Positions 14,265-64,000 of a stretch of 64,000 nucleotides of DNA are shown one piece after another. The first letter of the stretch is position 1, and every line of letters begins with the position of its first letter. The translations under genes were made by a program, and so were the position numbers. Source of the stretch: Parcubacteria bacterium C7867-006 (GTDB lineage: Bacteria; Patescibacteriota; Minisyncoccia; Phycocordibacterales; DATDWN01); contig LFCP01000004.1 in assembly GCA_001189155.1 (NCBI GenBank), positions 68,782 through 132,781 on the forward strand, read 5' to 3'. The notes below the pieces were generated by a model. The model saw only the letters and a program-made list of their open reading frames with translations, was not told the origin of the DNA and did not search any database.

Positions 14265-14276
14265 AGTACTTAAACT

Positions 14277-26902: not shown

Positions 26903-26919
26903 CGTTGAGACGAGTGAAA

Positions 26920-44872: not shown

Positions 44873-44898
44873 TTTTTATTCATACGATATTTTGTAAA

Positions 44899-45639
44899 TC
44901 ATATTACTATTTTATCGGGCTTCCAATATTTTTTTACTTTCTTTTTGAAATCTTGATAAGATTTAAATATTTCTGGGTGATTTTTATTCTCCTCCATCCA
45001 TTTATCTAAATTTGTATATAATCCATGAAATCCAAATTGCTTGTCATATATATCATCATCTCCCTCTAAAGCAAACCTCCTAGCCAGCTCCACCGGGGCA
45101 AACCTTATTCCTTCTGAAGTTAATAAATCTCTGTACCAAACACACAACGCTATATCTTCAGGATGGTAAGTTTTAAATACCCCACTCAAATACATCCTTG
45201 AAGAAACTTCAAGAAATTTCCTACTTCTAATACAAAAACCTCCATTACCAACTATACGTGTATTTCTTAGGTTCTCTGGGAATCCAAAATCGTATATTGA
45301 CCAGTCCTTAACGATCCACGGAGAGCCTATGTAATCATAATCAAGAAAATCATTAGTCCAGCTATTTGGATTTAGAACAAACCCATCCCACTGAATAAGT
45401 AACACGAACTCGGTTTCTACGTATTTTTTTAAATCACTGAGACAAAATTTAGAAAAATCTTCATAACTAGATATTTTGCCAATTTTTACCCACCTTTTAT
45501 CATCAATATAGTCTGAACTTAAAATCTTTGACTTGGCAAAAAAAATTTTTTCTTCACATAAATCCATAACTTTTTGCAGTCTAGAAGCATCAACACAATC
45601 TATTCCAAGCAATGTTACATTTTCTAACTTTAATTTCAT
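44899..45639 (-). CDS. hypothetical protein (DUF5672-like) in glycosylation cluster
   Basis: ORF, context. Confidence 0.3.
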   Translation of the reverse strand: MKLKLENVTLLGIDCVDASRLQKVMDLCEEKIFFAKSKILSSDYIDDKRWVKIGKISSYEDFSKFCLSDLKKYVETEFVLLIQWDGFVLNPNSWTNDFLDYDYIGSPWIVKDWSIYDFGFPENLRNTRIVGNGGFCIRSRKFLEVSSRMYLSGVFKTYHPEDIALCVWYRDLLTSEGIRFAPVELARRFALEGDDDIYDKQFGFHGLYTNLDKWMEENKNHPEIFKSYQDFKKKVKKYWKPDKIVI

Positions 45640-45665
45640 ATAAAATTGCTTTACTAATTACTTAT

Positions 45666-47917: not shown

Positions 47918-47922
47918 TTTTT

Positions 47923-48477
47923 TTAATTAATTTGGTTATATTTATATAGCATATCCAAAGCTCGTTTTACAATATGGTCACCAATTTCACCCCATTTTAC
48001 GTATTGTCCATAATCTTTAGGGTCAACTAGTTTAATTTCTGTGATATCTACATCGGGGTCAGAAACAAAATCTCCATATGGTTCAACAATACACAATGAA
48101 CGAGTTTGTCTTATAATCCTATCTTTCTCATGTACATCTATATAGCCAATAAGATCTAGGTGTAAAACTTTCATATTTGATTCTTCTTTTACTTCTCTAA
48201 CTGTAGCCTCTTGCCATGTTTCTCCTTTCTCTATTCCACCACCAGGAAAAGTCCAATACCCCTTGTCGCCCGCATAAACCACAACTAACTTGTCGCCATA
48301 AAAACAGAAACCATGAACGGCTTGAAGAATCTTTCCATCGAGCCCATCATTAGGGTCAAAACCTTCTCTATAAACATAATCAACCATCTCTCCATTACGT
48401 CCTTTGAATTGTGATTTTATTTCCATATTTAGATAGTATACCAAAACCCTAAAACTACCGTAGACTACACAAAACAA
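47923..48477 (-). CDS. NUDIX hydrolase (paralog 1)
   Basis: Nudix box GGGIEKGETWQEATVREVKEESNM. Confidence 0.8.
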   Translation of the reverse strand: MFCVVYGSFRVLVYYLNMEIKSQFKGRNGEMVDYVYREGFDPNDGLDGKILQAVHGFCFYGDKLVVVYAGDKGYWTFPGGGIEKGETWQEATVREVKEESNMKVLHLDLIGYIDVHEKDRIIRQTRSLCIVEPYGDFVSDPDVDITEIKLVDPKDYGQYVKWGEIGDHIVKRALDMLYKYNQIN

Positions 48478-48492
48478 AGCTATATTTCATAA

Positions 48493-49413
48493 TTATATTT
48501 TAGAGAAAAAATTATATTTCCGATACATATATGACCGAATAACTCTTTTTTCAGAATTGGGATCTTCAGCTAAATCACAAAAATAAGTAGCGGCATCTGA
48601 CAATAAAGAAAATTTAATCCATGAATACAAATTCTCATTTTTTTCTATTTTAATTTCAGAAACTGAATTATATCCATCCAAAAAGGCATCAAAAATTAAA
48701 AAATTGGGTTCATCAGATCCATCAGGAAACGACCATTCGACCGCAGCAAGAGCAAGATCCTTTATAAGCGGACCAGTGCAGCTCCAATCAAAATCTATAA
48801 TCCCCACCAGATTATCCCCGTTATCAAAAATAACATTCCCTGGTCTATAGTCATTATGGATTAAACCTGTAACTTCATTTTGATTTCTAGCAAATTCTAG
48901 CGAAGACTCGACTTCTTGCACAAATTTCTCACCACCCTCAAATTCTTTTTTAAACTTATCAGATATTTTCAAGACTCTTTCTAATTCAGAAAATATTGTT
49001 CTTTTTCTGGGAGAAACTTGAGAAAAACCAGCCCCTGCATTCCTCATCTCACCCAGACCTCTTCCGGCTGAATATGCGATATTTAATTCCGGTAAATGGT
49101 CTTTGTCTATATTAATATTGTGTCCATCAACATACTCAAACATAACAGCAACCACCTCATTAACAACAGTATAACAATCTCCTTTTAAAGTTTTAATCCA
49201 TTTGGAAAATAGACTAGATTTTTTTGAAAGATATTGATTAGCTTCATATTCAAATTTTATATCCTCAACAGGCAACCTCTTACTTATTCTCAGTACCTTT
49301 TTCTGATCTTCTCCAACTAAATATACAAAATTATCTGCTGACTCTCGCAATAAAACTACAGGAATTGATTCCGGCAAACTATATTCTGATAATACTCTCA
49401 TTATATCTTTCAT
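48493..49413 (-). CDS. APH-family phosphotransferase/kinase
   Basis: HNDYRPGNVIF catalytic loop, IDFDWS motif. Confidence 0.65.
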   Translation of the reverse strand: MKDIMRVLSEYSLPESIPVVLLRESADNFVYLVGEDQKKVLRISKRLPVEDIKFEYEANQYLSKKSSLFSKWIKTLKGDCYTVVNEVVAVMFEYVDGHNINIDKDHLPELNIAYSAGRGLGEMRNAGAGFSQVSPRKRTIFSELERVLKISDKFKKEFEGGEKFVQEVESSLEFARNQNEVTGLIHNDYRPGNVIFDNGDNLVGIIDFDWSCTGPLIKDLALAAVEWSFPDGSDEPNFLIFDAFLDGYNSVSEIKIEKNENLYSWIKFSLLSDAATYFCDLAEDPNSEKRVIRSYMYRKYNFFSKI

Positions 49414-49433
49414 AATTAAAATAGTTTTCTTTA

Positions 49434-49958
49434 TTATTTATTTTTATAATACTCCTCTTTCATTTCTATTGCCCGTTTTACAATATGATCACCAATCTCG
49501 CCCCAATCAAAATATTGTTTGTAATCTTTTGGATCAATTAACTTTATTTCAGTTATACTTCCATCTGGATCAGAAACAAAGTCTCCATACGGTTCAACTA
49601 TACAAAAATAGCGTAACTGATTAAATATTTTTCCATCAAAATGAACCTCTTGGTACCCAATTGGTGCAAACGAAAGAACTCTCATATTTGATTCTTCGTG
49701 AATTTCTCTTTTCAAACATTCTTCAAATGTCTCTCCATCCTCAATACTTCCTCCTGGCAAAATCCAGTGACCACCACCTTTACTACTATATACAACAACC
49801 ATGTTATCCCCAACAAAACAAACCCCATATGTTTGGGTTACCTTATTATCCAAAAGATGACTAAATGAATCTGCGTCTTCATAGGTGACTTCTGCTAGCT
49901 TACCTTCTTTGTCAGTGAATTGAGATTTAATTTGCATTATATTTATTTTAACTGACAA
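49434..49958 (-). CDS. NUDIX hydrolase (paralog 2)
   Basis: Nudix box PGGSIEDGETFEECLKREIHEESNM; about 55% identical to 47923..48477 incl. shared C-terminus WGEIGDHIVKRA. Confidence 0.8.
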   Translation of the reverse strand: MSVKINIMQIKSQFTDKEGKLAEVTYEDADSFSHLLDNKVTQTYGVCFVGDNMVVVYSSKGGGHWILPGGSIEDGETFEECLKREIHEESNMRVLSFAPIGYQEVHFDGKIFNQLRYFCIVEPYGDFVSDPDGSITEIKLIDPKDYKQYFDWGEIGDHIVKRAIEMKEEYYKNK

Positions 49959-50617
49959 TTTTTGTATGTCTGGGCACTGTTTGCTCCTTCTGTAATAAAT
50001 GCTGTGTCACCTTTGTTCCAGAAGACGAAAGTCTCATCAGTGTTTGCATATCTCGCACCAGATGCAGAGATAGCTCGAGGAACTCTCATACTTCTACCAT
50101 CACTAAGCTCCAAATCAACGAATTTGTCTTCACCGATATAAAAACTAGCTGTTATACTTTTTGAATCAGCACATGCAAAAACCACTTTCTTTGGAACAAC
50201 GACAGAACTTTTTTCTATTTTGAACTGACCACTTTCTGCTGTCACTGTATCTGTTATTGGAATAGAAGCATAACTGTTAACTCCTATAACATAGTTACCT
50301 GCTGGATACATATCTGAAACAGTCCAGTCCTGACTTCCAGTGTTTGGAAGATTGATAAAAACGATTGGATCAAACTCCTGACCTTCTTCTTGTAGAGGTG
50401 GCGGAGGAACCCTCCTGATTGTAATCGAAATTTTGTCTGTCGCTGGAATATTTTTAGTCTTCCATTTTATTACATAAACAGAACCCTCTGTTAAAACATC
50501 TCCACTCGCTGGAGAGAGCACCTGCATGGAAGGTTTTTTATCTACAGTGAAAAAATAACCAGCGATACAAATAGCAACTACCAACAAAACAATCAAAATG
50601 GCTTTGTTTTTGTTCAT
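49943..50617 (-). CDS. secreted protein with C-terminal MliC-like (lysozyme inhibitor) domain
   Basis: signal anchor; conserved Cys pair, SASGARY, FWNKGDTA resemble MliC. Confidence 0.5.
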   Translation of the reverse strand: MNKNKAILIVLLVVAICIAGYFFTVDKKPSMQVLSPASGDVLTEGSVYVIKWKTKNIPATDKISITIRRVPPPPLQEEGQEFDPIVFINLPNTGSQDWTVSDMYPAGNYVIGVNSYASIPITDTVTAESGQFKIEKSSVVVPKKVVFACADSKSITASFYIGEDKFVDLELSDGRSMRVPRAISASGARYANTDETFVFWNKGDTAFITEGANSAQTYKNCQLK

Positions 50618-50847
50618 AGCACCATTATATCAAATTAGCCTGATGTTTATTGCTTTCTCAAAAATGCAGTAGCAAAAATCCAAAAAAGTGGTAATATTGG
50701 CTTGTTAGTTAAACATATTGGGTGAGGTTGGGTTGGGACCCGACCGCAAGGCCGGAGCCTGACGAGGCGAGGAGGGGTCGCAAAAATTTTCACCAAAAAA
50801 TTATTTGTGACATCGACGACGATCTCACTTAATTTTATAAACCATAT

Positions 50848-50921
50848 TGGGAGATCGTCTAACGGTAGGACAGAGGCCTTTGAAGCCTTTAATTGGGGTT
50901 CGATTCCCTGTCTCCCAGCCA
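50848..50921 (+). tRNA. tRNA-Gln (anticodon UUG), CCA encoded
   Basis: cloverleaf folded by hand: acceptor U1-A72...7 bp, D-loop GG, AC loop cUUUGaa, T-loop TTCGATT, discriminator G, CCA. Confidence 0.85.
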
Positions 50922-51012
50922 GCTTGAGATAGTTTCGGACTCCGAGGAGGGTCGAAATGGCTCAAGTATCTATTCCGCCACCACATACCTGCTGAGAGCA
51001 GTATTCAAGACA

Positions 51013-51045
51013 AAAAATCACTGAGTTATATCAGTGATTTTTTGT
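51013..51045 (+). terminator. hairpin ATCACTGA-gttatat-TCAGTGAT plus T6
   Basis: seen directly downstream of tRNA. Confidence 0.6.
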
Positions 51046-51066
51046 TGTGCATAAGTATAACTTGAC

Positions 51067-51086
51067 TATACCCCCTAGGGGGTATA
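51067..51086. promoter_or_regulatory. perfect 20-bp palindrome TATACCCCCTAGGGGGTATA, candidate CsoR operator overlapping csoR promoter
   Basis: GC-rich palindrome of the known CsoR-operator style, 11 nt upstream of csoR ATG, flanked by TTGACT and TATATC. Confidence 0.5.
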
Positions 51087-51096
51087 TCATCTAACT

Positions 51097-51360
51097 ATGA
51101 ATATAAATAAATCTAAAATACTACGTAGGTTAAAAATTATTGAAGGGCAAGTTAGAGGACTGGGAGAAATGGTCGAAAAAGGTGCATATTGTATTGATGT
51201 CATAACCCAGGGTTCTGCAGTCAAACAAGGTATTTCAAATATTGAAGATATGCTCATGGAGCATCATCTTTCGCATTGCGTTGTTAAGCAAATAAAAGAA
51301 GGAAAACCAACAAAAGCTGTTGAGGAAGTTCTTAAGGTTTATAAACTTAAACGTAAATAA
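51097..51360 (+). CDS. csoR: CsoR/RcnR-family copper-sensing repressor
   Basis: 87 aa; C-H-C metal ligands (CIDV...HHLSHC). Confidence 0.8.
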
Positions 51361-51365
51361 AATAT

Positions 51366-53660
51366 ATGAATCATACTCAAACATATAAAATAAAAGGAAT
51401 GCATTGTGCATCATGTGCAAGCATCATTGAAAAAACTTTTAAAAAATCAGACGGTGTTCATTCGGTCGAAGTAAATTATGGAACTGAAACAGCTAAAATT
51501 GCTTTTGATGAATCAAAAACTAGTCCACATCATCTTTCTAAAAATATTGAAAAGTTGGGGTACTCCCTTGATATTCCTAGTGCTGAATCAATGGGCATGA
51601 GTGCTAATGAACACGCGGCTCATTTAGGCTTGAACCAATCAAAAAAAGAGAAATTGGCGGAAGTTGCAGACATGCGAACGAAAGTGCTTTCAGCTATTCC
51701 AATTGCTATTCTTGCTGCTTTTATTATGGGTTGGGATATATTTGCTGAATATAACATTGCTCCTGCAATGAGTTATACACTTAAGGAATTTTTCCATCAT
51801 CTCCTTCCAATACTTGCCACTTATATTTTGTTTGTAGTTGGCAAACCATACTTATTTGGTTTTTATAGATTTCTCCGATATGGCAAGGCAAACATGGACA
51901 CTCTTATTGGGATTGGTACCAGTACCGCTTTTTTATATAGTTTTGCTGTAACTGCATTCGAGGATGTTCTCCGCCCTTTTATTAATGTTGAATATCAATA
52001 CTATGATGTCACAATCGTGGTTATTACTTTTATCGCATTGGGTAAATATCTTGAAGCAAGATCAAAAATTAAAACTGGAGATGCTATTGAAAAACTTCTT
52101 AATCTTCAAGCAAAGACCGCACTCGTTATTCGTGATGGAAAAGAAGTTGAGATTTCAGTTAATGACGTTAAACATAATGATCTGATAATTGTTAAGCCTG
52201 GGGCAAAGATTCCAGTAGATGGTGTTGTAACCGAAGGTAGTTCTTTTATTGATGAATCCATGGTTACAGGAGAACCAATGCCAGTACAGAAAAAGGTTGG
52301 CGACAGTGTTGTGTCTGGAACGATTAACACCAATGGCTCATTCACTTTTAAGGCAACTAAAGTGGGGTCTGAAACATTACTTGCACAGATTATAAAGATG
52401 GTGGAGGAAGCTCAAGGAAGTCGTGCACCAATACAAGCTCTTGCAGACAAAATATCAGCAATTTTTGTACCAATTGTTCTGGTAATCGCTTTTCTCACTC
52501 TTGGAGCGTGGCTCATAGTCGGGTCTCAGTATTTAGGTTTCTCTCAAGCTCTTTCATTCGGGCTAGTTTCATTTGTTGGGATTCTCGTTATCGCATGTCC
52601 ATGCGCACTTGGTTTGGCTACACCGACTGCTATTATTGTTGGTGTCGGCAAAGGTGCCAAAGAAGGCATTCTTATTAAAGATGCGGCTACACTTGAAAAA
52701 CTCCATAAGGTAAACACAGTTGTAGTTGATAAGACAGGCACCATCACTATTGGTAAGCCAACTCTTGTCGATATTCAAAATAATTCAAATCTTAACGACG
52801 AAGAATTTATATCAATTCTCGCCTCACTTGAGAAAAAGTCAGAGCACCCAATTGCACACGCCATTGTAAACTACGCACAAGAAAAAAATATTCCAATATC
52901 AGAAGCTCTGGTATTTGAAGCAATACAAGGTAAAGGATTAAAAGGATCAATCAAAGGAACAGAATACTTCGTGGGTAATACAAAACTTGTAAGTGATCTT
53001 ATCCTTTCATTCGACAATATGAAATTGAATGAGTTTACATCACAAGGTAAAACTCCAGTTATTCTAGCAAGTAAAGAAAAAGTTCTCGGTTTTGTTATGG
53101 TCGCTGACGAGATAAAGCAAGAATCAAAGCAAGCTGTTTCTGATCTTCATGATTTAGGCGTCAAGGTTGTGATGCTTACAGGTGATGATGAAAAAGCTGC
53201 TAAATACATTGCATCACTTGTTGGTATTGATGAAGTTGTAGCCCATGTGTTGCCACAGGATAAACTTGAAAAGATAAAAGAACTTCAATCACATGGTCTA
53301 GTAGTTGCTATGGCAGGTGATGGTGTAAATGACGCCCCAGCACTCGCTCAAGCAGATGTTGGCATCGCTATGGGAACTGGAACAGATGTGGCAATAGAAT
53401 CAGCTGGCATTACACTTCTGGGCGGAGATATTTCAAAGCTGGTGAAAGCTATTAAGCTTTCTAAAATCACCATGAGAGGTATTAAGCAGAATCTTTTTTG
53501 GGCATTCATCTACAACATTGTTGGTATTCCTTTGGCCGCAGGAGCTTTGTACCCAGTTTTTGGGTGGCTATTAAATCCTGTATTTGCAGGATTTGCGATG
53601 GCAATGTCCTCAGTATCAGTAGTGTCAAATTCACTTCGTATTAAAGCGAAGAAATTATAA
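51366..53660 (+). CDS. copA: copper-translocating P1B-type ATPase
   Basis: [27 protein letters not shown]. Confidence 0.95.
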
Positions 53661-53678
53661 AAATTAACTATAAATAAT

Positions 53679-54320
53679 ATGAATAATAAAATTGTATTTG
53701 GAATCGGAGGAATAATAATTGGTTTAGTTATTGCAATATTTTTTACAACAACTATATCTCCATATAGTAATGCTGGTTTTGGAATGATGGGATGGAGAAG
53801 TAATTCTGGCTCAAATCAAGGACTTACAGGTAACACTCAAGTAGCAAACAATATCGATAGACATTTTATTGAACAGATGATTCCGCATCATGATGGTGCT
53901 GTTGCTATGGCAAAGTTAGCATTAGAAAAATCAAAGCGTACAGAAATTAAAACTCTCGCTACTGCAATAATTGAAGGTCAAACAAAAGAAATTCAAGATA
54001 TGGAAGTTTGGTATAAGGATTGGTTTGGAAAAGATGTCCCACAGGTTAGCACTGGGATGATGGGTGGTGGGATGATGTCTTCTAGTGGAATGCATATGGG
54101 TGGGCAAGAAGATATGACTGTACTCGAAAATGCAAAAGATTTTGATAAGGCATTTCTTGAAGCAATGATTCCACATCACCAACTCGCTCTTATGATGGTA
54201 CGAATGTTGGAAGCAGGGTCAAATCGACCAGAAATGCTTCAGCTTGCAAAAAATATTACCAACTCGCAGTCGAAAGAGATACAGCAAATGCAGGCTTGGT
54301 ATGTGCAATGGTACAAGTAA
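53679..54320 (+). CDS. DUF305 domain protein (copper-resistance associated)
   Basis: duplicated MIPHHxxAVxMA motifs. Confidence 0.75.
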   Translation: MNNKIVFGIGGIIIGLVIAIFFTTTISPYSNAGFGMMGWRSNSGSNQGLTGNTQVANNIDRHFIEQMIPHHDGAVAMAKLALEKSKRTEIKTLATAIIEGQTKEIQDMEVWYKDWFGKDVPQVSTGMMGGGMMSSSGMHMGGQEDMTVLENAKDFDKAFLEAMIPHHQLALMMVRMLEAGSNRPEMLQLAKNITNSQSKEIQQMQAWYVQWYK

Positions 54321-54348
54321 ATTATTAAAAATAACTACACATAAATAT

Positions 54349-54570
54349 ATGAAAGTATCAAAAATAATACATGTCAGCAGTGTTGTGGTCGGTTTAATCG
54401 GAGTAATTTCATTTTTAGCTGCAGTTTTCGGAGGAGCTGACAATTCCGTATTGGGTGTAACTAAAATCGACGCTCTGCTCTGTGCCGGAATACTTATCCT
54501 TATTGCAACATGGCTTCAGGTCGCAACAATTCATCACATGATGCTTGAAAAGCGTGGTGAAAATATTTAA
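54349..54570 (+). CDS. small 2-TM membrane protein in copper operon
   Basis: start trimmed to MKVSKII so as not to overlap DUF305 gene. Confidence 0.4.
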   Translation: MKVSKIIHVSSVVVGLIGVISFLAAVFGGADNSVLGVTKIDALLCAGILILIATWLQVATIHHMMLEKRGENI

Positions 54571-54586
54571 ATTGTCGTAGTAATTT

Positions 54587-55594
54587 ATGAAAACATACAC
54601 ATTCCATGTTTCCGGAACTCATTGCCCATCATGTAAAATCTTCATTGAAGATGCTTTAAATGAGCAGATTGGTATCGATCGTACCGATGTTGATTTAAAG
54701 CACGAGATAGTAACAATCAACACCACTCTAGATGAAAACCAACATAAACTTGCAGAAATACTGACTGAAAAAATAAAACGTAATGGTTATTCTCTTTCAG
54801 TAGAAAAAAAAGATAAAGATAAGAAAGACGGCAGTGTTATTTGGCAAGCTCTACCTATTGGTTTAGCACTTCTAGCTCTTTTTTTCATTGTGCAGAAATC
54901 AGGAATACTGAACTTCGGATTAGGTGGAACTGTAACACCTGTCACTAGTTTTATCATTGGTCTCATTGCATCTGTTTCAAGTTGTCTTGCAGTTGTTGGA
55001 GGACTCGTCCTTTCTCTTTCAGCAACTGTGTCTCAGGATAAAATAAGTGACGTAAAACCGATGGTGCTTTTTCATGGAGGTCGACTTATTAGTTTCGCAA
55101 TACTTGGTGGTGTACTCGGTGCTATTGGTAGTGTGATTGGTATTAGTTTTACCTTTACTGCAATCCTCGGAATCATTGCATCAATTGTGATGATTGTACT
55201 CGGGCTTAATCTACTAGGGATTTTTGAGAAAAATATGATAGCTCTTCCTTCGGGGGCTTTCAACTTCTTTCGGAAGATGGAACACAAAACAATGGCTCCA
55301 CTATTAGTTGGTGTTGGTACATTTTTCCTACCTTGTGGATTTACTCAGGCAATGCAGGTCGCGGCACTTTCAAGCGGTTCGTTTCTTTCTGGATTTCTAA
55401 TTATGACAACTTTCGCTTTAGGCACTCTTCCTGTGCTCGCACTCTTGTCATTCGGATCAGCATCTTTTTCTCAATCAAAACATGCTCCTCTGTTCTTTAA
55501 ATCTGCTGGAGTTTTAGTAATTGGTCTTGGAGTCTTTGCACTTCTAGCTGGACTCGCAGGGTTAGGTGTTATTGACCCTTTATTTAACATATAA
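54587..55594 (+). CDS. HMA-like N-terminal domain fused to DsbD_2/CcdA-like membrane domain
   Basis: HCPSCKIFIEDAL metal site; TM Cys SSCLAV and FLPCGF. Confidence 0.65.
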   Translation: MKTYTFHVSGTHCPSCKIFIEDALNEQIGIDRTDVDLKHEIVTINTTLDENQHKLAEILTEKIKRNGYSLSVEKKDKDKKDGSVIWQALPIGLALLALFFIVQKSGILNFGLGGTVTPVTSFIIGLIASVSSCLAVVGGLVLSLSATVSQDKISDVKPMVLFHGGRLISFAILGGVLGAIGSVIGISFTFTAILGIIASIVMIVLGLNLLGIFEKNMIALPSGAFNFFRKMEHKTMAPLLVGVGTFFLPCGFTQAMQVAALSSGSFLSGFLIMTTFALGTLPVLALLSFGSASFSQSKHAPLFFKSAGVLVIGLGVFALLAGLAGLGVIDPLFNI

Positions 55595-55609
55595 TCTTAT
55601 TAATAATCT

Positions 55610-56008
55610 ATGCAAAAAAATACAATCATATCAATCATTATTAGCATCGCTTTGATTGGCGGAACGCTTTACTTTATTTCTGACAGGTCAACATCCTCGG
55701 TTGGTGAAGTCGCACAATCACAGAATGTTGAAATTAAGGATGGTGTGCAATATGTAACAATAACAGCAAAAGGAGGCTATTCTCCACGAATCACAGAAAT
55801 TAAAGGAGGACTGCCTACTAAATTGATTGTAAAAACAGATGGGACATATGATTGTTCAGCATCGCTCGTGGTTCGACCTGTTGGTTTCCAAAAAATATTG
55901 CAACCAACAGGTGAAGAGGTCATAGATTTAGGCACTCCAAAATCTGGAGACAAAGTGCAGGGTGTGTGTGGAATGGGAATGTACAATTTTCAGATAAAGG
56001 TAAGTTAA
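55610..56008 (+). CDS. membrane-anchored cupredoxin-like small protein
   Basis: TM anchor; C...C..M.M pattern (DCSAS...GVCGMGMYNF). Confidence 0.4.
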   Translation: MQKNTIISIIISIALIGGTLYFISDRSTSSVGEVAQSQNVEIKDGVQYVTITAKGGYSPRITEIKGGLPTKLIVKTDGTYDCSASLVVRPVGFQKILQPTGEEVIDLGTPKSGDKVQGVCGMGMYNFQIKVS

Positions 56009-57331
56009 TTAATCGAGTGTTATCTTTTTATTATTTAACAATATTTTACTATTCAAACAGCCTAATAATTCTCTTTTCTCTAAACCACTAGCTTCCTGTA
56101 AGACATACTTTGCATAATTTCGTATATCAATGTCATTAACCTCAATTTTTTCTTTTGACCCGATGATTATTCGTTGAAATTTTTTAACTCTTTCTACTTC
56201 AGTTTTAATTTTTTCTTTTATACCTAATTCATCTAGGTTAATTTTATTCATTAGTTGAACAAGTTGTTCAATCAAATCTTCTTCATTTATGTATCCTGAT
56301 TTACAGTGTTTATCTTTAAACTTAGTGCAACCGTAGTAAACGTAACGATGTACATTTCCATTTTTCTGCTTTTTAAATTTCTCATCTGCCGTAATACCAG
56401 ATCCGCATAAACCACATGTCATTAATTTTGTGAAGGCAAATTCTTTATCTTCTACTCGGATAATTTGTCCATTTATTTGAGCTTGAACCTGATCAAAAAG
56501 TTCTTTTGTAATTAGAGGTTCGTGTACACCCTTATACCAAAGACCACTTTTCTTAGGGAACTCAAAAGTGCCATAATAAAAATCGCTTTTTAGAATTAAA
56601 TAAATATTGCTTAAGGTTAATCCTTTGTTTCCGTTAGGGGTTTTAAAGTTAAGTTCAAATTTGAGCCAATGAAATATCTTTTTACCACTCCACTTTTCGT
56701 ATGCAACTTTCTCAAACATTTTTTTAATAACATGACCTCGGTCTGGATCAATATACACACAACCTTTTCTATCAACCCTCATTTCATTGAGGTATCCCAT
56801 GGGAGCGGGTGCTGGCCATAAACCCATCTCACATCTAGTTCTCAATCCACGCTTAACATTGATGCTTTTATTATCGTTCTCAAGTTTTGCTTGAGAACAC
56901 AAAATCATTAATAAGAACTTTTCGTTTGGTGAATTCTGGAATGACTGACCATAAGTTCTAATTTGATGTAGTTTCTTTTCATCCATCAGGTCTACCAATG
57001 TGCCGAGGTCACCAGCATTTCTGCTTAAACGATCTGGTGCCCATGTCAAAATACCAGTGTACCTTCCAGAATTTAGATCTCGAATAAGCTCATTAAACAC
57101 AGGTCTTTGACCTGATGCTTTTGCAGAGTGAGACTCACGCCTAATATCTACTACCTCAAGATTATCTCTTTCCGCAATCTGTAGCATCTCTTTTACTTGA
57201 GAGTCAATTGATAATGCCTGTTTCTCGTCAGATTCAGTTGATTTACGAGCATATAGGCAATATCTCACTTTATCTATAGGCACTACATCTGGAGCCCATA
57301 TTTGAGCCCCTCTGTTTATTACTGCTTCCAT
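56009..57331 (-). mobile_element. large serine recombinase (resolvase/integrase) gene
   Basis: N-terminal resolvase domain YARKSTESDEKQALSIDSQ, recombinase domain, C-terminal zinc ribbon CGLCGS...C. Confidence 0.85.
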
Positions 57332-57373
57332 ACCTATATTGATGACGCAATGGTTCTGGGAGTCAAGGAGAAA

Positions 57374-57949
57374 TTAAGTATCTTTGTCCACATCTGGATC
57401 CAGCATCTTTTTGGCTATTTCTTCCTTCTCAAAATCAATCTTCCATTCTTTGTAGGATGCATTGAATATGTCTATTAGATTTTGCTCATCGTTACAGAAT
57501 ATTTTAATAAAAGGTTCAAATATATGGTAAGCAATATCTTCCTCATAATTCTTTTCAAGATTGTGAATAATTGCAAACATACTTTCGAAATTGTTACCGT
57601 TCTCTAGAGGTTTCTTTACAATGTCGGTATCTCTGGTCAACAAGGAACTATAATGTATACCTTTTTCTTTTTGCATATACCTCGAATCATTATGAGATAA
57701 CCAAAAAGTCGCAGACTTATGTTCTCCTCGTTGGACTCCTTTTATAATTACAGTTTCAGCAGATCCGTTTATAGCTTCTCGTCCAACAAATAAAGCCATG
57801 ATGACTTTTTTATGAAAGGATTGGTGTCGCATAATCCATCTATAAAAAGTACTATGGTCTATTCCAACTTTATTGCAGACATATCGAATATTTGGAATTA
57901 TTTCTAATTCCTTAACAATTCTTTTGGTTATGTCATCTCCATACCTCAT
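57374..57949 (-). CDS. phage-like HTH protein (terminase-small-subunit-like N-terminus)
   Basis: N-terminal HTH; context next to recombinase. Confidence 0.3.
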   Translation of the reverse strand: MRYGDDITKRIVKELEIIPNIRYVCNKVGIDHSTFYRWIMRHQSFHKKVIMALFVGREAINGSAETVIIKGVQRGEHKSATFWLSHNDSRYMQKEKGIHYSSLLTRDTDIVKKPLENGNNFESMFAIIHNLEKNYEEDIAYHIFEPFIKIFCNDEQNLIDIFNASYKEWKIDFEKEEIAKKMLDPDVDKDT

Positions 57950-57951
57950 AG

Positions 57952-59223
57952 CTAATTTATCTTATGAGCCTTGTCACCGGTAAAGATTTCATACCTTTTA
58001 ATTATTAAATCTACAAAGACTGGGTCGATTTCAACCATAAAACACTTTCTTTTAAGTTGGTGAGATGCAATAAGTTCTCCGCCACTTCCACCGAAAAGAG
58101 AAAGGATATTGTCTCCGATTTTTGTACAGCGTTTAATTGGTTTGTCGTGAAGAGTGATTGGCTTTTCTGTTGGATGTTCGTAGAGGTTTCCAGATAATCT
58201 TCGTATTGCCCACACATCAAACATTTCCATATAGTTTTCAATCATCTCATTACCGGTACCAATATCTTTATTTAACACTTCATCATAATTTCTATGATGT
58301 GGAGAAAGATAGGGCTTTCCTTTTGTTCCATAAACACACGGTTCATACACTTTGGAAAATGCTATTTGAGGGGTTGGGTTAGCTATTCCTTTTAACCATA
58401 TACAGATTCTCTTAAAATCAATACCGATTTCTTTATAGATGGAAGCAATAAGTGGTGTATACGTTTGATCACAGTAATAGAAGAAGTGAGCATTGGTGTT
58501 TGTAACAGCAAAAGCGTTTTTAATTGTTTTCTTTAGAAACTCCTCGTAATCTTTATCATTTTTATTATCAGTACTTGAACCGCCATAGTTTTTAGTTCCT
58601 CCAATTCCATTTTTGTAGGATAGGTTAATGTTGTAAATTGGGTCACAATAAACCATATCAATTTTCTCCTGACCAACGACTTTTTCTACTGACTTAATGT
58701 CGGTAGAGTCACCACACAATAGTCTGTGTGGGCCAAGTTGATACAAATCACCAAGTTTACTTTTTGGTTTTTTTATTTTCTCTAACTCCTTTTCAGTAGA
58801 GAATCCATCCTCTTCCGTATCCAGATCAATAAATACTCCATCGAGTTCCTCGTCTGAAAAACCAATATCTTCAAGAAATTTTTCATCAAACTCACTTAAT
58901 AGCTCAATATCAAATTCACCTTGATTCTTATGTAAACGAATAGCAAGTTCCTTTTCCTTATCAATCTCTGAAATACTTGTGTACACAACTGGTACTTCTT
59001 TGATACCGAGTTCTTTTGCAACCCTTAAACGACCATGACCACCAATTAGAATGTTTTTCCTATTGGGTGCGCCATTTAGAATTAAAGGGTCAACAAAACC
59101 AAATCTTTTTACAGATTCAGATATTTGAGTGAGTTGTTCCTTCGAGAACTTTTTTGGATTGTACTCATTAGGTTTAATTTTACTCACAGGCACATAACAA
59201 ACAGACAACTTTTCATTGTTCAT
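57952..59223 (-). CDS. ParB-like nuclease domain fused to beta-class N6/N4 DNA methyltransferase
   Basis: ParB N-terminus; DPIYNIN (DPPY) then FGGSGGE SAM motif (motif IV before I). Confidence 0.75.
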   Translation of the reverse strand: MNNEKLSVCYVPVSKIKPNEYNPKKFSKEQLTQISESVKRFGFVDPLILNGAPNRKNILIGGHGRLRVAKELGIKEVPVVYTSISEIDKEKELAIRLHKNQGEFDIELLSEFDEKFLEDIGFSDEELDGVFIDLDTEEDGFSTEKELEKIKKPKSKLGDLYQLGPHRLLCGDSTDIKSVEKVVGQEKIDMVYCDPIYNINLSYKNGIGGTKNYGGSSTDNKNDKDYEEFLKKTIKNAFAVTNTNAHFFYYCDQTYTPLIASIYKEIGIDFKRICIWLKGIANPTPQIAFSKVYEPCVYGTKGKPYLSPHHRNYDEVLNKDIGTGNEMIENYMEMFDVWAIRRLSGNLYEHPTEKPITLHDKPIKRCTKIGDNILSLFGGSGGELIASHQLKRKCFMVEIDPVFVDLIIKRYEIFTGDKAHKIN

Positions 59224-59552
59224 AATATTTTATTGCTAACTAATAAGAGAGAAGGGCTTTTAAAGAAAAAGCCACTTCTTATAACTCTGCAGTAAACAAA
59301 GTTATCCGAATGAGTGACATTTTAGGTAGACTATCTAGGTTTGTATTCAAATTATAGAACGATAGGGGCCAAAAAGTCGATATGACTTATCCACAGATAT
59401 TTAATCATGTCAAGAGTGTAAAGAATGTAAATCGCTTCGCAGGGATTGAGTGATGTGATAGGGTGGAAAAATAGCACCCAAAAGTGCTATGATAAGAGCA
59501 CAATTTAATAAGTATAAGTAGCCTAAACCTAGTTTTCACTAGGCATGGTGAA

Positions 59553-59690
59553 AAGTCCTATCAAGCATAAAGAACCCATCATGGGGTCGCTTGATAGGCC
59601 ATATCGGGAAACCGGTATGAGAGACTTCGGTCTCTACCCGTGGTGGGCTTTTTGTGTATCTGCCACGGCATTAGCAAGTCCTATCAAGCA
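59553..59690 (+). promoter_or_regulatory. structured leader: 15-nt direct repeat AAGTCCTATCAAGCA (59553 and 59676) plus inverted partner GCTTGATAGG (59589) and hairpin GAGAGAC-ttcg-GTCTCT followed by T5
   Basis: seen directly; second repeat covers the RBS of the HNH gene; middle arm can pair with either flanking copy. Confidence 0.3.
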
Positions 59691-59693
59691 AAA

Positions 59694-60128
59694 ATGATAA
59701 ATTTTGAACATCCCGAAGATCGGGAGTATTTTGCTAATTTATTAGCAAATGGAGATGTAAAAAAATTAGACAGAGATTTTTCTGAGCTTTTTGATTTTGA
59801 ACATCTTGCAATGAAAAGATGGAGATTTAATAAGATTAGGAAAAAGATTTTAAAAGAACTTATTGAGAAATACGGCAATGAGTGTCAGTTAAAAATCCAT
59901 CCTGATTGTAGTAAGGTGCAAAAATTTGAACCTGATCACATTATTCCGCTAGCTTCAAATGAGTTAAATAAAAAATTAAGAAAAATGGCTCGTTTTTCCA
60001 GTGAGAAAGTTGAGCAACAGAGTTTCGGATCAAATAATATGAAAAACCTCACTTTGGCATGTAAAAGATGTAATGCTTTCAAAAAACATCGTATGTTTTT
60101 GTCAATAAATTTTGGTCTTCAAAAATGA
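59694..60128 (+). CDS. HNH endonuclease
   Basis: C..C...EPDHIIP...N...C..CN HNH fold motifs; start taken at ATG 59694 downstream of the repeat-bearing leader. Confidence 0.7.
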   Translation: MINFEHPEDREYFANLLANGDVKKLDRDFSELFDFEHLAMKRWRFNKIRKKILKELIEKYGNECQLKIHPDCSKVQKFEPDHIIPLASNELNKKLRKMARFSSEKVEQQSFGSNNMKNLTLACKRCNAFKKHRMFLSINFGLQK

Positions 60129-60147
60129 GCTAAAAAATGTTAAAATC

Positions 60148-61596
60148 ATGGCAATTATGTTTGAACAAGCTTTTAAGAATATAGATAAGATCCTCCGTAA
60201 CGATAATGCGGGTGGCGCGATGGATTATATAGAACAGACTTCCTGGATAATTTTTTTGAAGTATCTAGATGATCTAGAGACTGAACGTGAAAAGTCAGCG
60301 AAACTTTCTGGTAAAAAATACTCTTATATTCTTGATGGAGAATACAGATGGAGTTCTTGGGCATGCCCAATGAGCAAAGATAGAAAAATTGACTATAACA
60401 AAGCCCTTACAGGTGATGATCTCAATACTTTTGTTGACCAGAAACTCTTTCCGTATTTAAAGAAATTCAAATCAGAAAATTCAGATACTATTGAGTATAA
60501 AATTGGAGAGATTTTTAGTGAACTCAAAAATAAAATAAAAAGTGGATATGCTCTGCGTGACATTCTTAATATCGTGAATGGTCTACATTTCCAATCAAGC
60601 GAGGAAAAACATGAACTTTCTCACTTGTATGAGAGTAAAATTGCTGAAATGGGAAATGCTGGTCGTGACGGTGGACAATATTACACTCCTCGTCCACTTA
60701 TTCGAACTATTGTAAAAATGGTAAATCCAAAAATTGGAGAAACAATATACGATGGAGCATGCGGATCAGCAGGGTTTCTTATAGAAGCCTTTGACTATCT
60801 TACAGAAAACAAACAAAAACTTTCTCTCAAGGAGTACCAGACACTTCAGGAAAAAACTTTTTATGGAAAAGAAAAAATTACTTTGCCGTATATTATTGGT
60901 GTAATGAACATGATCTTGCATGGCATAGATGCTCCAAATATTATTCACACAAATACTCTCTCTGAGAATCTTACTGATATTCAAGAAAAAGATCGTTTTG
61001 ATGTCATTCTCGCCAACCCTCCCTTTGGAGGAGGTGAAAGAAAAGAGGTTCAACAAAACTTTCCGATAAAGAGTGGTGAAACTGCATATTTATTCTTGCA
61101 ACATTTTATAAAAAAACTTAAAGCAGGTGGTCGAGCTGGTATTGTAATTAAAAACACATTTCTTTCTAACGGCGATGCCTCAAATTTACGAAAAGAGTTT
61201 TTAAATAGTTGTGATGTTCACACAATTCTAGATTTACCATCTGGAGTATTCCAAGCTGGAGTAAAAACAGTAGTTTTATTTTTTGAGAAAGGTAAGACAA
61301 CAAAGAAAATATGGTATTACCAACTTAATCTTGGTCGAAATTTAGGTAAGGGCAATCCTTTAAGTGAGTTAGACCTGGCGGAATTTGTGAAATTACAGAA
61401 GACAAAAGCAGATAGCGAAAACTCATGGAGTATTAATGTCTCTGATATTGATAAAGAAAGTTTTGATTTATCTGTAAAAAATCCGAGTAAGAAAGATGGT
61501 GGTGTCTTGCGTGAACCAAAAGAAATTATTGATGAAATGCAAAAACTTGATACAGAAATTAAAAGTAGTGTGATGGGTATTCAAAAACTATTATGA
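60148..61596 (+). CDS. hsdM: Type I restriction-modification N6-adenine DNA methyltransferase subunit
   Basis: NPPFGG motif IV, HsdM N-terminal domain, GSAGFL motif I. Confidence 0.9.
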   Translation: MAIMFEQAFKNIDKILRNDNAGGAMDYIEQTSWIIFLKYLDDLETEREKSAKLSGKKYSYILDGEYRWSSWACPMSKDRKIDYNKALTGDDLNTFVDQKLFPYLKKFKSENSDTIEYKIGEIFSELKNKIKSGYALRDILNIVNGLHFQSSEEKHELSHLYESKIAEMGNAGRDGGQYYTPRPLIRTIVKMVNPKIGETIYDGACGSAGFLIEAFDYLTENKQKLSLKEYQTLQEKTFYGKEKITLPYIIGVMNMILHGIDAPNIIHTNTLSENLTDIQEKDRFDVILANPPFGGGERKEVQQNFPIKSGETAYLFLQHFIKKLKAGGRAGIVIKNTFLSNGDASNLRKEFLNSCDVHTILDLPSGVFQAGVKTVVLFFEKGKTTKKIWYYQLNLGRNLGKGNPLSELDLAEFVKLQKTKADSENSWSINVSDIDKESFDLSVKNPSKKDGGVLREPKEIIDEMQKLDTEIKSSVMGIQKLL

Positions 61597-62342
61597 AAAA
61601 ATTTGAGTATAATAAAGAAAATCTCAGATTAATTGCTTTTATTATCGCAAGTGCTTCATCAGGCACACTTTTTACAAAACTTTTACAAGATTCTGGTTGG
61701 AATGTTGTAAGTACAGCATCAGAAGAGTATAGAAAATCTGGTAAATCTAAAGAAGATTATCTTTTTGATCAATTTAATAAGATTGCCGAGGAGGGTAGGA
61801 TAGATGTACTAGAATTTATAATAGATAAGACTCTTTCAAAAAGTAGTGTTTATTTTAAAAAAGGTGATAAAGATTATAAATTTCCTAGAGATTCTTTTGG
61901 TGAACTAAAAAAGAAAGTTGGTAAAAAGGAGAAAAGTGATAAAAAGAAAAATAGCAAATTATTCGATGACAGAAAGTTACATGGATCGGTTGGTTTTGCC
62001 AGCAAAGACCTTTTCGTTTCAGAATTTTATTCACAGTCTATTTTTGAAGCATGTAAACTTTTGAATAAGAGAGTGCAAGAGCTGTCAAAATCTACAAAAG
62101 ATGGAAAGTCATTAATGCTAGATGTTTTTAGTGTAAATAATCCTATTTTAAAAATAAGTGATAATCAATCTCAGTCAGATAAAGATGAGCAAGAAGGATT
62201 TATGCACTTATTTGCAGGTGTTATGCACGGAATTCGGAATCCTAAAGGGCATGAGTTAATAAATCTAATAGATCCACTTAGAACACTAGAGTACCTCAGC
62301 TTTATTAGTCTTCTTTTTAGGAAACTAGATGAATTAAAGTAA
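61593..62342 (+). CDS. Ymh-family (TIGR02391-like) protein with HEPN-type Rx4H motif, inserted between hsdM and hsdS
   Basis: ATGA overlap with hsdM; C-terminal HGIRNPKGHE; positional hallmark between M and S subunits. Confidence 0.5.
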   Translation: MKKFEYNKENLRLIAFIIASASSGTLFTKLLQDSGWNVVSTASEEYRKSGKSKEDYLFDQFNKIAEEGRIDVLEFIIDKTLSKSSVYFKKGDKDYKFPRDSFGELKKKVGKKEKSDKKKNSKLFDDRKLHGSVGFASKDLFVSEFYSQSIFEACKLLNKRVQELSKSTKDGKSLMLDVFSVNNPILKISDNQSQSDKDEQEGFMHLFAGVMHGIRNPKGHELINLIDPLRTLEYLSFISLLFRKLDELK

Positions 62343-62343
62343 T

Positions 62344-64000
62344 ATGAAAACTAGCTGGCAAATAAAAGAACTTGGAGAAATAATTAAATTAGAATATGGA
62401 AAACCACTTCCAGATTCTAAGAGACATCCTGACGGTAAGTATCCTGTATATGGTGCTAATGGGGAAAAAAATAGGACTAACGAATTTTTTTATAATAAAC
62501 CAAGCATAATCGTTGGTCGCAAGGGTTCTGCCGGAGAACTGAATCTAACTGAAGAAAAATTCTGGCCTCTTGATGTAACTTATTTCGTTACTTTTGATTC
62601 CACTAAATATGATTTAGGTTTTATTTATAATCTTCTTAATACATTAGAGCTTACAAAACTAGCAAAGGGTGTAAAGCCGGGAATAAATAGAAATGATGTT
62701 TATTCTATTAAAGTAGATACTCCACCAATCTCTGAGCAAAAGCGAATTGTGAAAAAATTAGATGAGGTTTTTGAGAAAGTAACAAAGGCAAAGGAGGCCG
62801 CAGAAAAAAACCTACAAAATTCGAAAAAGCTCTTTGAGTCCTATTTGAATGGTATCTTTGTGAATCCGAGTAAAGACTGGGATGAAAGATTTCTAGGAGA
62901 AGTATTACAGAAGACAGAAACTGTTGATCCAACAAAAAAACCTAAAGAAAAGTTTGTATATATTGATGTTTCAAGTGTAGATAAGGAAACAAAAGAGATA
63001 GTGAACACATCTTTACTTATAGGAAAAGACGCACCTAGTCGAGCAAGAAAACTAGTTAAAACTAATGATGTTATTTTTGCTACTGTTAGACCAACACATG
63101 CTAGAGTGGCCATAATAACAGAGAAATATAACAACCAAGTTTGTAGCACCGGATATTTTATTTTGAGGACAAATGACCTGATGAATAATAAGTTAGTATT
63201 TTATTTCCTACTCACTTCTAGTTTTAATAGACAGATGGAAAAATTACAAAAGGGCGCAAGTTATCCTGCTGTTACAGATAGTGAAGTAAAAAATATAAAG
63301 ATTTTATTTCCGAAGTCTCTTGCTGAGCAAAAAAAGATTATAGATAAACTTGATGTGCTTTCAATTGAAACAAATAAGTTAGAGAAAATATATAAAAAGA
63401 AACTCGCTTGTTTGGAAGAACTTAAAAAGTCTATTTTAAAACAAGCTTTTGAGGGGAAACTAGTTGTTCAAGAACAAACAAGTTCTCTTCCTGTCCCATC
63501 ACCATATATTCGTAATCAAGTTCATGCTGCGATTGTTGGACAAGTATCAAAAGATGGTGGAGAGACTACAGAAGTTGCTGTCGCTAAATATGACCATTTA
63601 CTACAAGAAATTTTTGGCATATCACTAGGTTATCAATTTCAAACGCATCTATTTGGGCCATTTGATGTAGAAATAAAAAAATTAGTTTCTTCTGGTCTTA
63701 GCCCTAGAAATAGATGGTTTGTAAAAAGAAACGGTATGATTGTCGCTGGTAGTAATATTACTGCATTACTTTCACGTTCAAGTAACTTATATAGAAATGC
63801 ACAGACAGCTATGATTGAACTGGCGAGATTGGGAATAACAAAGATGAATACTGACAAAGTTGAGTTATTATCGACTGTCTGTCATGCAATAAAAGAATGC
63901 AGATCTACTGATTTAAAAATTATTAGAAATTTTATGGATCAATGGCAAACAAACAATAATCAAACAAAGGCTCAAAAATTTTCTTTAGAACAGACTAAAA
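62344..64000 (+). CDS. hsdS: Type I R-M specificity subunit HsdS with two TRDs and an additional C-terminal extension; 3' partial (runs off window)
   Basis: TRD1, central conserved region, TRD2, distal conserved LKKSILKQAFEGKL, then more than 170 further residues; no stop before 64000. Confidence 0.8.
   Translation, partial: MKTSWQIKELGEIIKLEYGKPLPDSKRHPDGKYPVYGANGEKNRTNEFFYNKPSIIVGRKGSAGELNLTEEKFWPLDVTYFVTFDSTKYDLGFIYNLLNTLELTKLAKGVKPGINRNDVYSIKVDTPPISEQKRIVKKLDEVFEKVTKAKEAAEKNLQNSKKLFESYLNGIFVNPSKDWDERFLGEVLQKTETVDPTKKPKEKFVYIDVSSVDKETKEIVNTSLLIGKDAPSRARKLVKTNDVIFATVRPTHARVAIITEKYNNQVCSTGYFILRTNDLMNNKLVFYFLLTSSFNRQMEKLQKGASYPAVTDSEVKNIKILFPKSLAEQKKIIDKLDVLSIETNKLEKIYKKKLACLEELKKSILKQAFEGKLVVQEQTSSLPVPSPYIRNQVHAAIVGQVSKDGGETTEVAVAKYDHLLQEIFGISLGYQFQTHLFGPFDVEIKKLVSSGLSPRNRWFVKRNGMIVAGSNITALLSRSSNLYRNAQTAMIELARLGITKMNTDKVELLSTVCHAIKECRSTDLKIIRNFMDQWQTNNNQTKAQKFSLEQTK

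Follow-up and report, generated by a model that had tools for sequence, protein, structure and literature searches.

We analysed a 64,000-nt stretch of the genome of Parcubacteria bacterium C7867-006 (contig LFCP01000004.1, positions 68,782 to 132,781; hereafter the window). Here, a preliminary description had picked out a putative integrated mobile and defence island that begins at a tRNA-Gln gene and runs off the right edge. The source organism is represented by a genome bin of 652 kb and 36% GC that comes from the Hanford aquifer (PMC4508563). The JGI contig J055_10000067 (locus L005; other loci compared are numbered in the same way) is 100% identical to window positions 50148–64000 (13,853 nt) and runs 7.6 kb past the window, to window-equivalent position 71596. 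A second JGI contig locus, L003, matches window positions 39964–60617 (20.6 kb) except for a single mismatch and a single 21-nt indel. With the L005 extension, the limits of the block are placed at 50922, after the tRNA-Gln 3′ end, and at ~70050 (each ± ~100 nt). The block thus spans 19.1 kb, or ~3% of the ~650-kb host genome, and its right end, expected in the preliminary description to lie beyond the window, is ~6 kb past the window end. The tRNA gene, metal-resistance cargo, serine recombinase, helix-turn-helix (HTH) protein, ParB-methylase, HNH endonuclease and Type I restriction-modification (R-M) genes named in that description are all borne out by Pfam, ARAGORN and Rfam.

The tRNA-Gln(UUG) gene (50848–50921, plus strand; ARAGORN; Rfam tRNA, 59.4 bits) marks where the island is predicted to attach on the left. 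It ends in ...CCCAGCCA, and its 54-nt 3′ portion is identical in 10 metagenome contigs with differing flanks. A structured trailer, the left repeat block D3L (50922–51046, plus strand), follows the tRNA without a gap. It opens with an extended hairpin, GCTTGAG..TTTCGGAC-TCCGAGGAG-GGTCGAAA..CTCAAGT, followed by a small hairpin, CTGCTGAGAGCAG, and an intrinsic terminator at ~51011–51045, and folds with a minimum free energy of −45.5 kcal/mol (z = −4.2). Over the aligned part, the trailer is 93% identical in L054, 95% in L058 and 76% in L014. In L202, the alignment of the copper-operon block extends into the trailer, at 76% overall.

Between the trailer and the recombinase 3′ end lies a first cargo slot (slot 1), occupied in the window by a plus-strand copper operon. 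A promoter-like site, TTGACT-17-TATCAT (51062–51092, plus strand; promoter scan), overlaps a palindrome, TATACCCCCTAGGGGGTATA (51067–51086, plus strand; read from the sequence and missed in the preliminary description), which its position and known CsoR operators mark as a putative CsoR operator. Nearly the same palindrome is found ahead of the L202 copper operon and, in L014, ahead of an operon of the Cus-like RND type. The operon encodes CsoR (51097–51360; Trns_repr_metal, 8.5e-25), the P1B-ATPase CopA (51366–53660; E1-E2_ATPase, HMA and Hydrolase), a DUF305 protein (53679–54320), a 73-aa membrane protein (54349–54570), an HMA-DsbD_2 protein (54587–55594) and a cupredoxin-like protein (55610–56008), with domains assigned by Pfam. 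The hallmarks of CsoR-regulated copper efflux, a CsoR-family repressor, an HMA P1B-ATPase and a palindrome within a promoter-like site, are all present, and copper specificity is predicted from family membership.

The next three genes, all on the minus strand, form the backbone of the block. The large serine recombinase (56009–57331) is an intact 440-aa open reading frame (ORF) with Resolvase (PF00239, 2e-19), Recombinase (PF07508, 1e-13) and Zn_ribbon_recom (PF13408, 2e-9) domains. Its closest solved structures are SPbeta SprA/YokA (7e-15; query residues 27–365), then the A118 and TP901-1 integrases, and a YARKST motif, read by eye, offers a candidate catalytic serine. Judged by its sequence the protein is a phage-type serine integrase, sharing the three-domain architecture of SPbeta SprA, A118, TP901-1 and phiC31/Bxb1-type enzymes, and it is presumed to be the integrase of this element. 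Like the genes of temperate-phage serine integrases, it lies near one element end beside phage packaging genes. The family comprises at least 120 clusters at 73–97% identity, and its named sources are nearly all Parcubacteria or Patescibacteria metagenome-assembled genomes. An exact-match look-up of the protein returned no record, although L005 encodes an identical one.

Upstream of the recombinase lies a 191-aa HTH protein (57374–57949, minus strand) with weak Pfam matches to HTH_Tnp_1, HTH_Tnp_1_2 and Sf6_terminase. It is followed by a 423-aa fusion of ParB_N and N6_N4 DNA methyltransferase domains (57952–59223, minus strand; Pfam; hereafter ParB-methylase), which is linked to the HTH gene and the recombinase in every related locus. 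In the IMG/VR contigs L045–L050 and L074, homologues of the HTH protein sit between the ParB-methylase gene and the position of a terminase-family gene. Since these homologues adjoin the large terminase (TerL) gene in viral contigs, the HTH protein is most likely the small terminase (TerS). The "phage-like" label it first received can therefore be refined to a probable TerS.

The viral contigs place this backbone among phages. L045–L050, whose recombinases are 54–67% identical to that of the window, carry the ParB-methylase, the HTH homologue, a gene of 466–543 aa and, farther along, the recombinase. The 466–543-aa family is TerL, as established for the L048 member (phrog_38, 8e-75). L074, reached through the LOOT RNA described below alone, has the same gene order and, where the terminase would lie, an ORF of similar size. 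A DUF1508 homologue is common to the window element and L048. Because the IMG/VR contigs share the core of the element and add a large terminase, its origin is taken to be phage-derived. TerL is not found in the window, L057, L192, L206–L211 or the P0129 contig. In L202 it is displaced: a fragment lies beyond two tandem copper operons, and its strand is the reverse of the one used in the viral contigs.

Among the annotated genes of 50922–~70050, in which three proteins lack a Pfam or PADLOC match and PHROGs was run on the TerS-like protein only, we found none of the genes of a functional prophage (large terminase, portal, capsid, tail, lysis). Within the same limits, the Pfam annotation of the 19 kb includes no genes of an integrative and conjugative element (ICE), namely relaxase, coupling protein or type IV secretion. 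On this gene content, the island appears to be a phage-derived, terminase-less integrative element and neither a working prophage nor an ICE. The preliminary description had called the ParB-methylase fusion typical of phages and ICEs.

Between the ParB-methylase and the second cargo slot, alignments and a promoter scan delineate a putative divergent control region (59224–59519). It contains a short conserved block, CATGTCAAGAGTGTAAAGAATGTAAAT, at ~59403–59430, a promoter-like site at 59464–59493 and a conserved box, ACAATTTAATA, at 59501–59511. Immediately downstream lies a LOOT RNA (Rfam RF03000; 59520–59635, plus strand), which is absent from the preliminary description. It scores 88.2 bits in cmscan against a gathering score of 46.4 (E = 4e-17) and matches the model over its full length, positions 1–121 of 121. 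A terminator-like hairpin with a U-run follows at 59633–59656 (plus strand; promoter/terminator scan).

LOOT recurs with the backbone, in most of the family members compared here. Using Rfam or a covariance model built here (R1), we detected it in the window, L057, L202, L206–L208, L210 (partial, at the locus end) and L211; L209 stops short of the region. The viral contigs L045, L046, L047, L074 and L192 also contain LOOT, each together with recombinase, ParB-methylase and TerS-like genes. Further copies occur in L191, a phage contig that encodes a D5 primase and a terminase and gives no recombinase match, and in L199, which is too short for context. L048–L050 carry the backbone proteins and have no LOOT within the stretch covered. 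A first LOOT pattern scan of IMG/VR was too loose, matching 80 loci (120 stretches) of which one held a true LOOT; a pattern including the upstream box succeeded and is biased towards this element family. The ACAATTTAATA box or a close variant lies 5–10 nt upstream of LOOT in most copies compared, and a hairpin with a U-run and then a same-strand ORF follow it.

On sequence comparison, LOOT is a backbone gene of this element family. Two papers (PMC7779021, PMC7657543) list it solely as an RNA derived from metagenomes and rich in covariation, and assign it neither a function nor a genomic context. The window copy retains the multi-hairpin structure with GNRA-type loops of the Rfam family. In contrast to LOOT as listed in those papers, it has a defined context: it belongs to the backbone of a serine-recombinase element, a conserved box precedes it and a terminator of its own follows. 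A literature search returned nothing on this island, on serine recombinases of Patescibacteria prophages or on LOOT function. HEARO RNA pairs with IscB, and a comparable pairing of LOOT with the HNH endonuclease was considered and rejected, as the gene after LOOT differs between elements. For the same variability, a role as a type III antitoxin was judged unlikely.

Slot 2 begins after LOOT, and its genes in the window are all on the plus strand. The first encodes a small HNH endonuclease (59694–60128; HNH_5 and HNH in Pfam), 144 aa from its ATG, with homologues after LOOT in L057 (82% aa identity) and L202 (58%). HsdM (60148–61596; Pfam; PADLOC MTase_I, 7e-155), an embedded Hypoth_Ymh/HEPN-like gene (61593–62342; Pfam; PADLOC PD-Lambda-3_B, 7e-17) and HsdS (from 62344 to past the window; Pfam; PADLOC Specificity_I, 1e-52) come next. 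On L005, past the window, lie the rest of HsdS (571 aa in full), HsdR (PADLOC REase_I, 3e-135) and a DUF5655 protein that represents the candidate defence gene PDC-S18 (PADLOC, 2e-92). With HsdM, HsdS and HsdR together, PADLOC scores the Type I R-M system as complete.

L005 continues with an RNase H/PolB-exo-like protein, the DUF1508 gene (minus strand), two proteins without known function and an intergenic repeat block. Genes for an MBL-fold hydrolase, an ASCH protein and a GNAT protein follow. The MBL gene has more than 3800 homologues, of which the best 120 are 73–100% identical with named sources nearly all in the Patescibacteria; because of this large, conserved homologue set, it behaves as a host core gene.

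The intergenic repeat belongs to a two-part imperfect direct repeat that flanks the block, consisting of the hairpin block plus 55 nt at 78% identity and unique within the window. Its right copy lies at window-equivalent 69957–70105, just ahead of the MBL start codon. A ~120-nt right-end block (69929–70050) overlaps the start of this copy and terminates in GGCCAGCC, which echoes the tRNA end, and CCAGCC is present at both junctions. The L202 element has the right-end block at its far end (88% identity), beyond which the genes are unrelated to those of the window, and the L206/L207 element has it at its far side (86%). The preliminary description had proposed a search for attL/attR direct repeats; the repeats present are imperfect and are candidate att sites at most. 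A further copy of the tRNA-Gln 3′ end, sought within 20 kb downstream, was not found, so the locus lacks a classical long tRNA-fragment attachment (att) repeat.

Relatives carry other duplications at tRNA genes. L206/L207 (15853–16055) and L209 (8165–8367) have two complete tandem tRNA-Gln(UUG) genes, 60 nt apart, at the recombinase-proximal element end, with a trailer start after each; the pair may be an integration footprint. Insertions of ~140–190 nt that close with a 19–20-nt direct repeat of the tRNA 3′ end directly follow tRNA genes in L203 (8879–9029), L055 (after tRNA-Gln), L061 (9792–9960, after tRNA-Trp) and L014 (3171–3374). Those of L203, L055 and L061 are homologous (...GAATCGAA..CCTGTAAGGA.AGATTC plus the tRNA end) despite two different tRNAs. 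They could represent a miniature tRNA-targeting element or a structured RNA. Because relatives have such insertions, with tRNA 3′-end duplications, both here and at other tRNAs, the site is a general insertion hotspot.

Comparison with related genomes argues for insertion. A near-empty site is found in L203 (GCA_965661755.1), where a tRNA-Gln identical over 76/76 nt lies 1.1 kb upstream of the MBL gene (83% aa identity), against a tRNA-Gln to MBL distance of 19.2 kb in the window. Within this L203 region, BLAST detects no recombinase or end block, and there is no LOOT. Upstream of it are SerRS, Dus and DnaX, the same genes that precede the occupied site in L209 and L206–L211. The L206–L211 layout runs from DnaX through two tandem tRNA-Gln genes, T5orf172, a 665-aa protein, Dam, an N6_N4 methylase and the recombinase (85%) to HTH, ParB-methylase, LOOT, an SNase-domain protein, a KAP NTPase and the right-end block.

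Over the 99 nt upstream of the tRNA, and over the tRNA itself, L054 and L057 are identical; they diverge from the first base after the CCA. L054 continues with the trailer (tRNA plus 100 nt of trailer, 96%), a ThaI/Dcm Type II R-M system and the recombinase 3′ end (81% nt identity; 79% aa over the 91 C-terminal residues covered). L057 continues with a diverged trailer, a reverse transcriptase, recombinase (56% aa identity), HTH and ParB-methylase genes on the minus strand, LOOT and HNH. Because upstream sequences are identical and downstream sequences differ, L054 and L057 represent two element alleles at one site in one host background.

L058 repeats the tRNA–copper junction at 92%. L202 has copper operons, recombinase, HTH, ParB-methylase, LOOT, HNH, more genes and the right-end block. 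The P0129 contig shows, at gene level, DnaX, a gap, cargo and the recombinase. In L204, a recombinase fragment alone lies 580 nt upstream of the MBL gene, a decayed copy. The closest relative of the MBL gene (L061, 87%) shows no synteny, and a scan of genome contigs with MliC found distant relatives (at most 52% identity) and no synteny, L014 excepted.

A common layout of tRNA-Gln, cargo, recombinase/TerS-like/ParB-methylase genes on the minus strand, LOOT, cargo and right-end block is thus found in at least four host backgrounds, with tRNA-Gln beside MliC, beside DnaX or in the L054-type context. The exchangeable cargo lies in the two slots. Slot 1 contains copper operons in the window, L058 and L202, Dcm plus ThaI Type II R-M in L054, a reverse transcriptase in L057, GmrSD-HNH in L192, two methylases with the 665-aa protein and T5orf172 in L206–L210, and Dcm plus HNH in the P0129 contig; sequences diverge right after the recombinase stop codon. 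In slot 2, the HNH, Type I R-M and PDC-S18 genes of the window are replaced by HNH and an HTH_3/M78 peptidase pair in L202, an SNase-domain protein and a KAP NTPase in L206, a trypsin-like protein and then a Ymh/HsdM-like R-M module in L074, and a DUF4365/Mrr-like nuclease in L047. A Zn-ribbon/OB-fold protein or proteins without known function are found in other elements.

Taken together, these comparisons make it very probable that the block is a 19.1-kb integrated mobile element lying between tRNA-Gln(UUG) and the MBL gene, of which the window contains the left two-thirds. The early description of an integrated mobile and defence island is largely supported by the near-empty site, the recurrence of the layout and the right-end block. 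A block syntenic in all relatives and free of boundary repeats would, by that description, have refuted it; the block is not syntenic in all of them and has repeats at its boundaries.

In the mechanism we propose, the recombinase would insert the element, as a circle, at the tRNA-Gln 3′ end or immediately behind it, leaving the hairpin trailer as the left arm and the ~120-nt block ending in GGCCAGCC at the right. The reconstructed attP would then read ...GAGACCGAGGAGGCCAGCCA|GCTTGAGATAGTTTCGGACTC..., joining the right-end block to the left trailer. TerL and any structural genes would have been lost or displaced afterwards, and cargo would turn over in the two slots. LOOT would be transcribed divergently from the recombinase/TerS-like/ParB-methylase strand, with the promoter-like site ahead of it. 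The host would gain copper tolerance and phage defence, and the methylase would presumably shield the element DNA from restriction. The att sites and the exact crossover, the action of the recombinase in integration, current mobility and any role of LOOT are what we infer from this arrangement. The copper operon occupies one of the two cargo hotspots and could have been acquired as a module of its own.

Several observations weigh against integration of the block as one element. The flanking repeats are only 78% identical, and both hairpin copies are internally self-complementary, with a compensatory change between them. Hybrid attL and attR sites of a serine integrase are not expected to be self-complementary hairpins, and the flanking hairpins look more like selected structure than like such sites. 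The attP of such an integrase usually adjoins its gene, and a conserved site directly past the recombinase stop codon, sought across 11 elements, was not found. Nor were capsid, tail, lysis, replication, conjugation or other structural genes, or a directionality factor, recognised among the annotated genes of the 19 kb. The near-empty L203 site belongs to a different species, with an upstream context unlike that of the window. In L202 (11323–20433), slot 1 holds two tandem copper operons with a trailer copy between them, a degenerate tRNA 3′ end, CAGTCAGCCA, preceding that trailer, which suggests accretion. In L014, the trailer follows tRNA-Gln(CUG) and leads into a CsoR-box metal operon, with no recombinase in the ~12 kb covered downstream of that tRNA. 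The trailer and copper module may thus be an older or separately acquired layer of the locus. Base composition sets nothing apart, with GC inside the block at 0.32–0.40 against ~0.36 for the genome (PMC4508563); a deviating base composition is not an obligatory feature of integrated islands.

Compared with temperate-phage serine integrases, the window gene differs in its integration locus, a tRNA 3′ end and trailer, and in having no attP-like conserved sequence beside it. Tyrosine integrases typically use such tRNA sites, and serine integrases seldom do.

These points bear on the alternatives to different degrees. If unrelated modules (copper operon with trailer, a recombinase/ParB-methylase/LOOT remnant, Type I R-M and PDC-S18) had piled up independently at a tRNA-Gln hotspot, some or none of them co-mobile, the region would be a composite. 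This is the arrangement suggested by L014, where trailer, CsoR-box promoter and Cus-like RND operon stand without the recombinase, by the trailer copy and degenerate tRNA end of L202, by the small insertions with tRNA 3′-end duplications at the same tRNA in L059, L014, L055 and L203, and by cargo slots that both differ in every copy. We consider such a composite rather unlikely, as gene order from tRNA-Gln to the right-end block is kept across the host backgrounds and the same right-end block closes three elements, their outer flanks being unrelated. It is also partly compatible with an integrated mobile element, since an element with cargo hotspots is itself a mosaic.

A dead prophage remnant would instead be an immobile descendant of a temperate Parcubacteria phage that lost its terminase, structural and lysis genes and was kept for its cargo. 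The missing TerL and structural genes fit this description, given that related viral contigs retain TerL, as do the further-decayed copy in L204 and the displacement of TerL past the copper operons in L202. Against it, the recombinase has kept an intact ORF, and its family is conserved over its many clusters. Moreover, the terminase-less layout recurs in independent genomes (window, L057, L192, L206–L211), as expected of a maintained reduced form rather than of random decay, and one host background has different alleles at the same site. We therefore regard a dead remnant as unlikely.

The same layout brings to mind a phage satellite of the phage-inducible chromosomal island (PICI) type, in which integrase, small terminase, methylase and small RNA would be kept for packaging into helper capsids with defence cargo. 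Likeness to a PICI lies in the ~15–19 kb size, the integrase and small-terminase-like gene with no TerL or capsid genes, and the defence hotspots. The full-length versions with TerL in viral contigs and the switch-like HTH_3/M78 peptidase pair of L202 point the same way. The window element differs from PICIs in having a serine rather than a tyrosine integrase and no recognised replication module, repressor or capsid-redirecting genes. No capsid-remodelling, primase or replication genes are recognised, and the TerS assignment comes from weak matches and gene position alone. We know of no helper phage for this element, and on balance a PICI-type satellite is improbable.

Finally, the change of strand at ~50.7 kb might reflect a replication origin or terminus and no island boundary. 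As the preliminary description stated, polarity turns here from a long minus-strand run to plus: nearly all ORFs from ~24 kb to 50.6 kb lie on the minus strand, the sign of the GC skew flips at ~51 kb, and the cumulative skew of the window reaches its minimum at ~50–51 kb, coinciding with the tRNA-Gln locus from which genes diverge. No DnaA-box cluster is present at the switch, however, and total matches in the window are only slightly over chance. The sole perfect DnaA box in the window, TTATCCACA (59387–59395), lies in the ParB-methylase/LOOT intergenic region. Neither dnaA nor dnaN is among the window genes that were annotated, a subset of its ORFs. The skew also tracks gene orientation within the island, dipping at 56–59 kb over its minus-strand genes. 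A replication landmark is thus very improbable, and the evidence for the island is independent of the strand switch.

The integrated mobile element resembles tRNA-linked genomic or defence islands, and prophage or satellite defence hotspots such as those of P2/P4, in being tRNA-adjacent, with a conserved backbone and exchangeable slots, and absent from a relative. Across the copies compared, the slots hold R-M systems, reverse transcriptase, GmrSD, KAP NTPase, PDC-S18 and metal resistance. In contrast to those islands and hotspots, the element has a serine in place of a tyrosine integrase, a ~650-kb Parcubacteria host and a structured LOOT RNA in its backbone. As a tRNA-linked defence and metal-resistance island it is an ordinary kind of object. 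Less ordinary are the use of a serine integrase where a tRNA is the site, the link to LOOT, and a phage-derived backbone without terminase that is widespread and conserved in the candidate phyla radiation (CPR). CPR genomes measure ~0.6 Mb, and ~3% of one is taken up by a single mobile island with copper resistance and several anti-phage systems. The breadth of the recombinase family points to a major, apparently undescribed vehicle of gene exchange in Patescibacteria. A serine integrase that inserts beside a tRNA gene would, if true, be of potential interest as a genome-engineering tool.

This concrete genomic context makes the function of LOOT open to experiment. Tentatively, and short of an even chance, LOOT could be a functional core part of a widespread family of phage-derived serine-recombinase tRNA-Gln elements in Patescibacteria, serving the element life cycle, with the reduced terminase-less form a satellite-like carrier of defence and metal-resistance genes in these very small genomes. 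Its role may be, for example, that of an immunity or regulatory RNA, or of a cofactor of packaging, methylase or recombinase proteins, rather than that of a host small RNA.

Other features of the window lie to the left of the tRNA-Gln gene. Just upstream of it, at 50718–50790, is a GC-rich stretch (GGGTGAGGTTGGGTTGGGACCCGACCGCAAGGCCGGAGCC...GCGAGGAGGGGTCGCAAAA) that contains a third copy of the CGAGGAGGG(G)TCG motif found in both flanking hairpins. Ahead of this stretch, the sequence is similar to the promoter region of the tRNA in L054/L057, which would fit an insertion of ~130 nt between promoter and tRNA-Gln in the window. The adjoining minus-strand cluster at 41000–50600 has the lowest GC of the window (0.26–0.34) and codes for glycosyltransferases, APH-type kinases, NUDIX proteins, DUF5672 and a carbamoyltransferase. 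A second variable region, for surface polysaccharide, may lie here. L014 likewise has an MliC–NUDIX pair near tRNA-Gln, arranged differently.

Farther left, a c-di-GMP-II riboswitch (RF01786; 23820–23903, minus strand) scores 63 bits against a gathering score of 53.5. It lies directly upstream of the gene for a 967-aa surface protein (20876–23779, minus strand) with Big_9 and cadherin-like repeats and a peptidoglycan-binding domain; this would be an adhesin under second-messenger control in a Parcubacteria genome. Three patches of 0.8–1.2 kb, at 2963–3802, 13071–14276 and 26752–27656, reach 51–52% GC (locally to 68%) and share no similarity with each other. Two of the three encode signal-peptide proteins without a Pfam match (13297–14184, plus strand; 26920–27516, minus strand), and the patches may have been acquired from higher-GC organisms.

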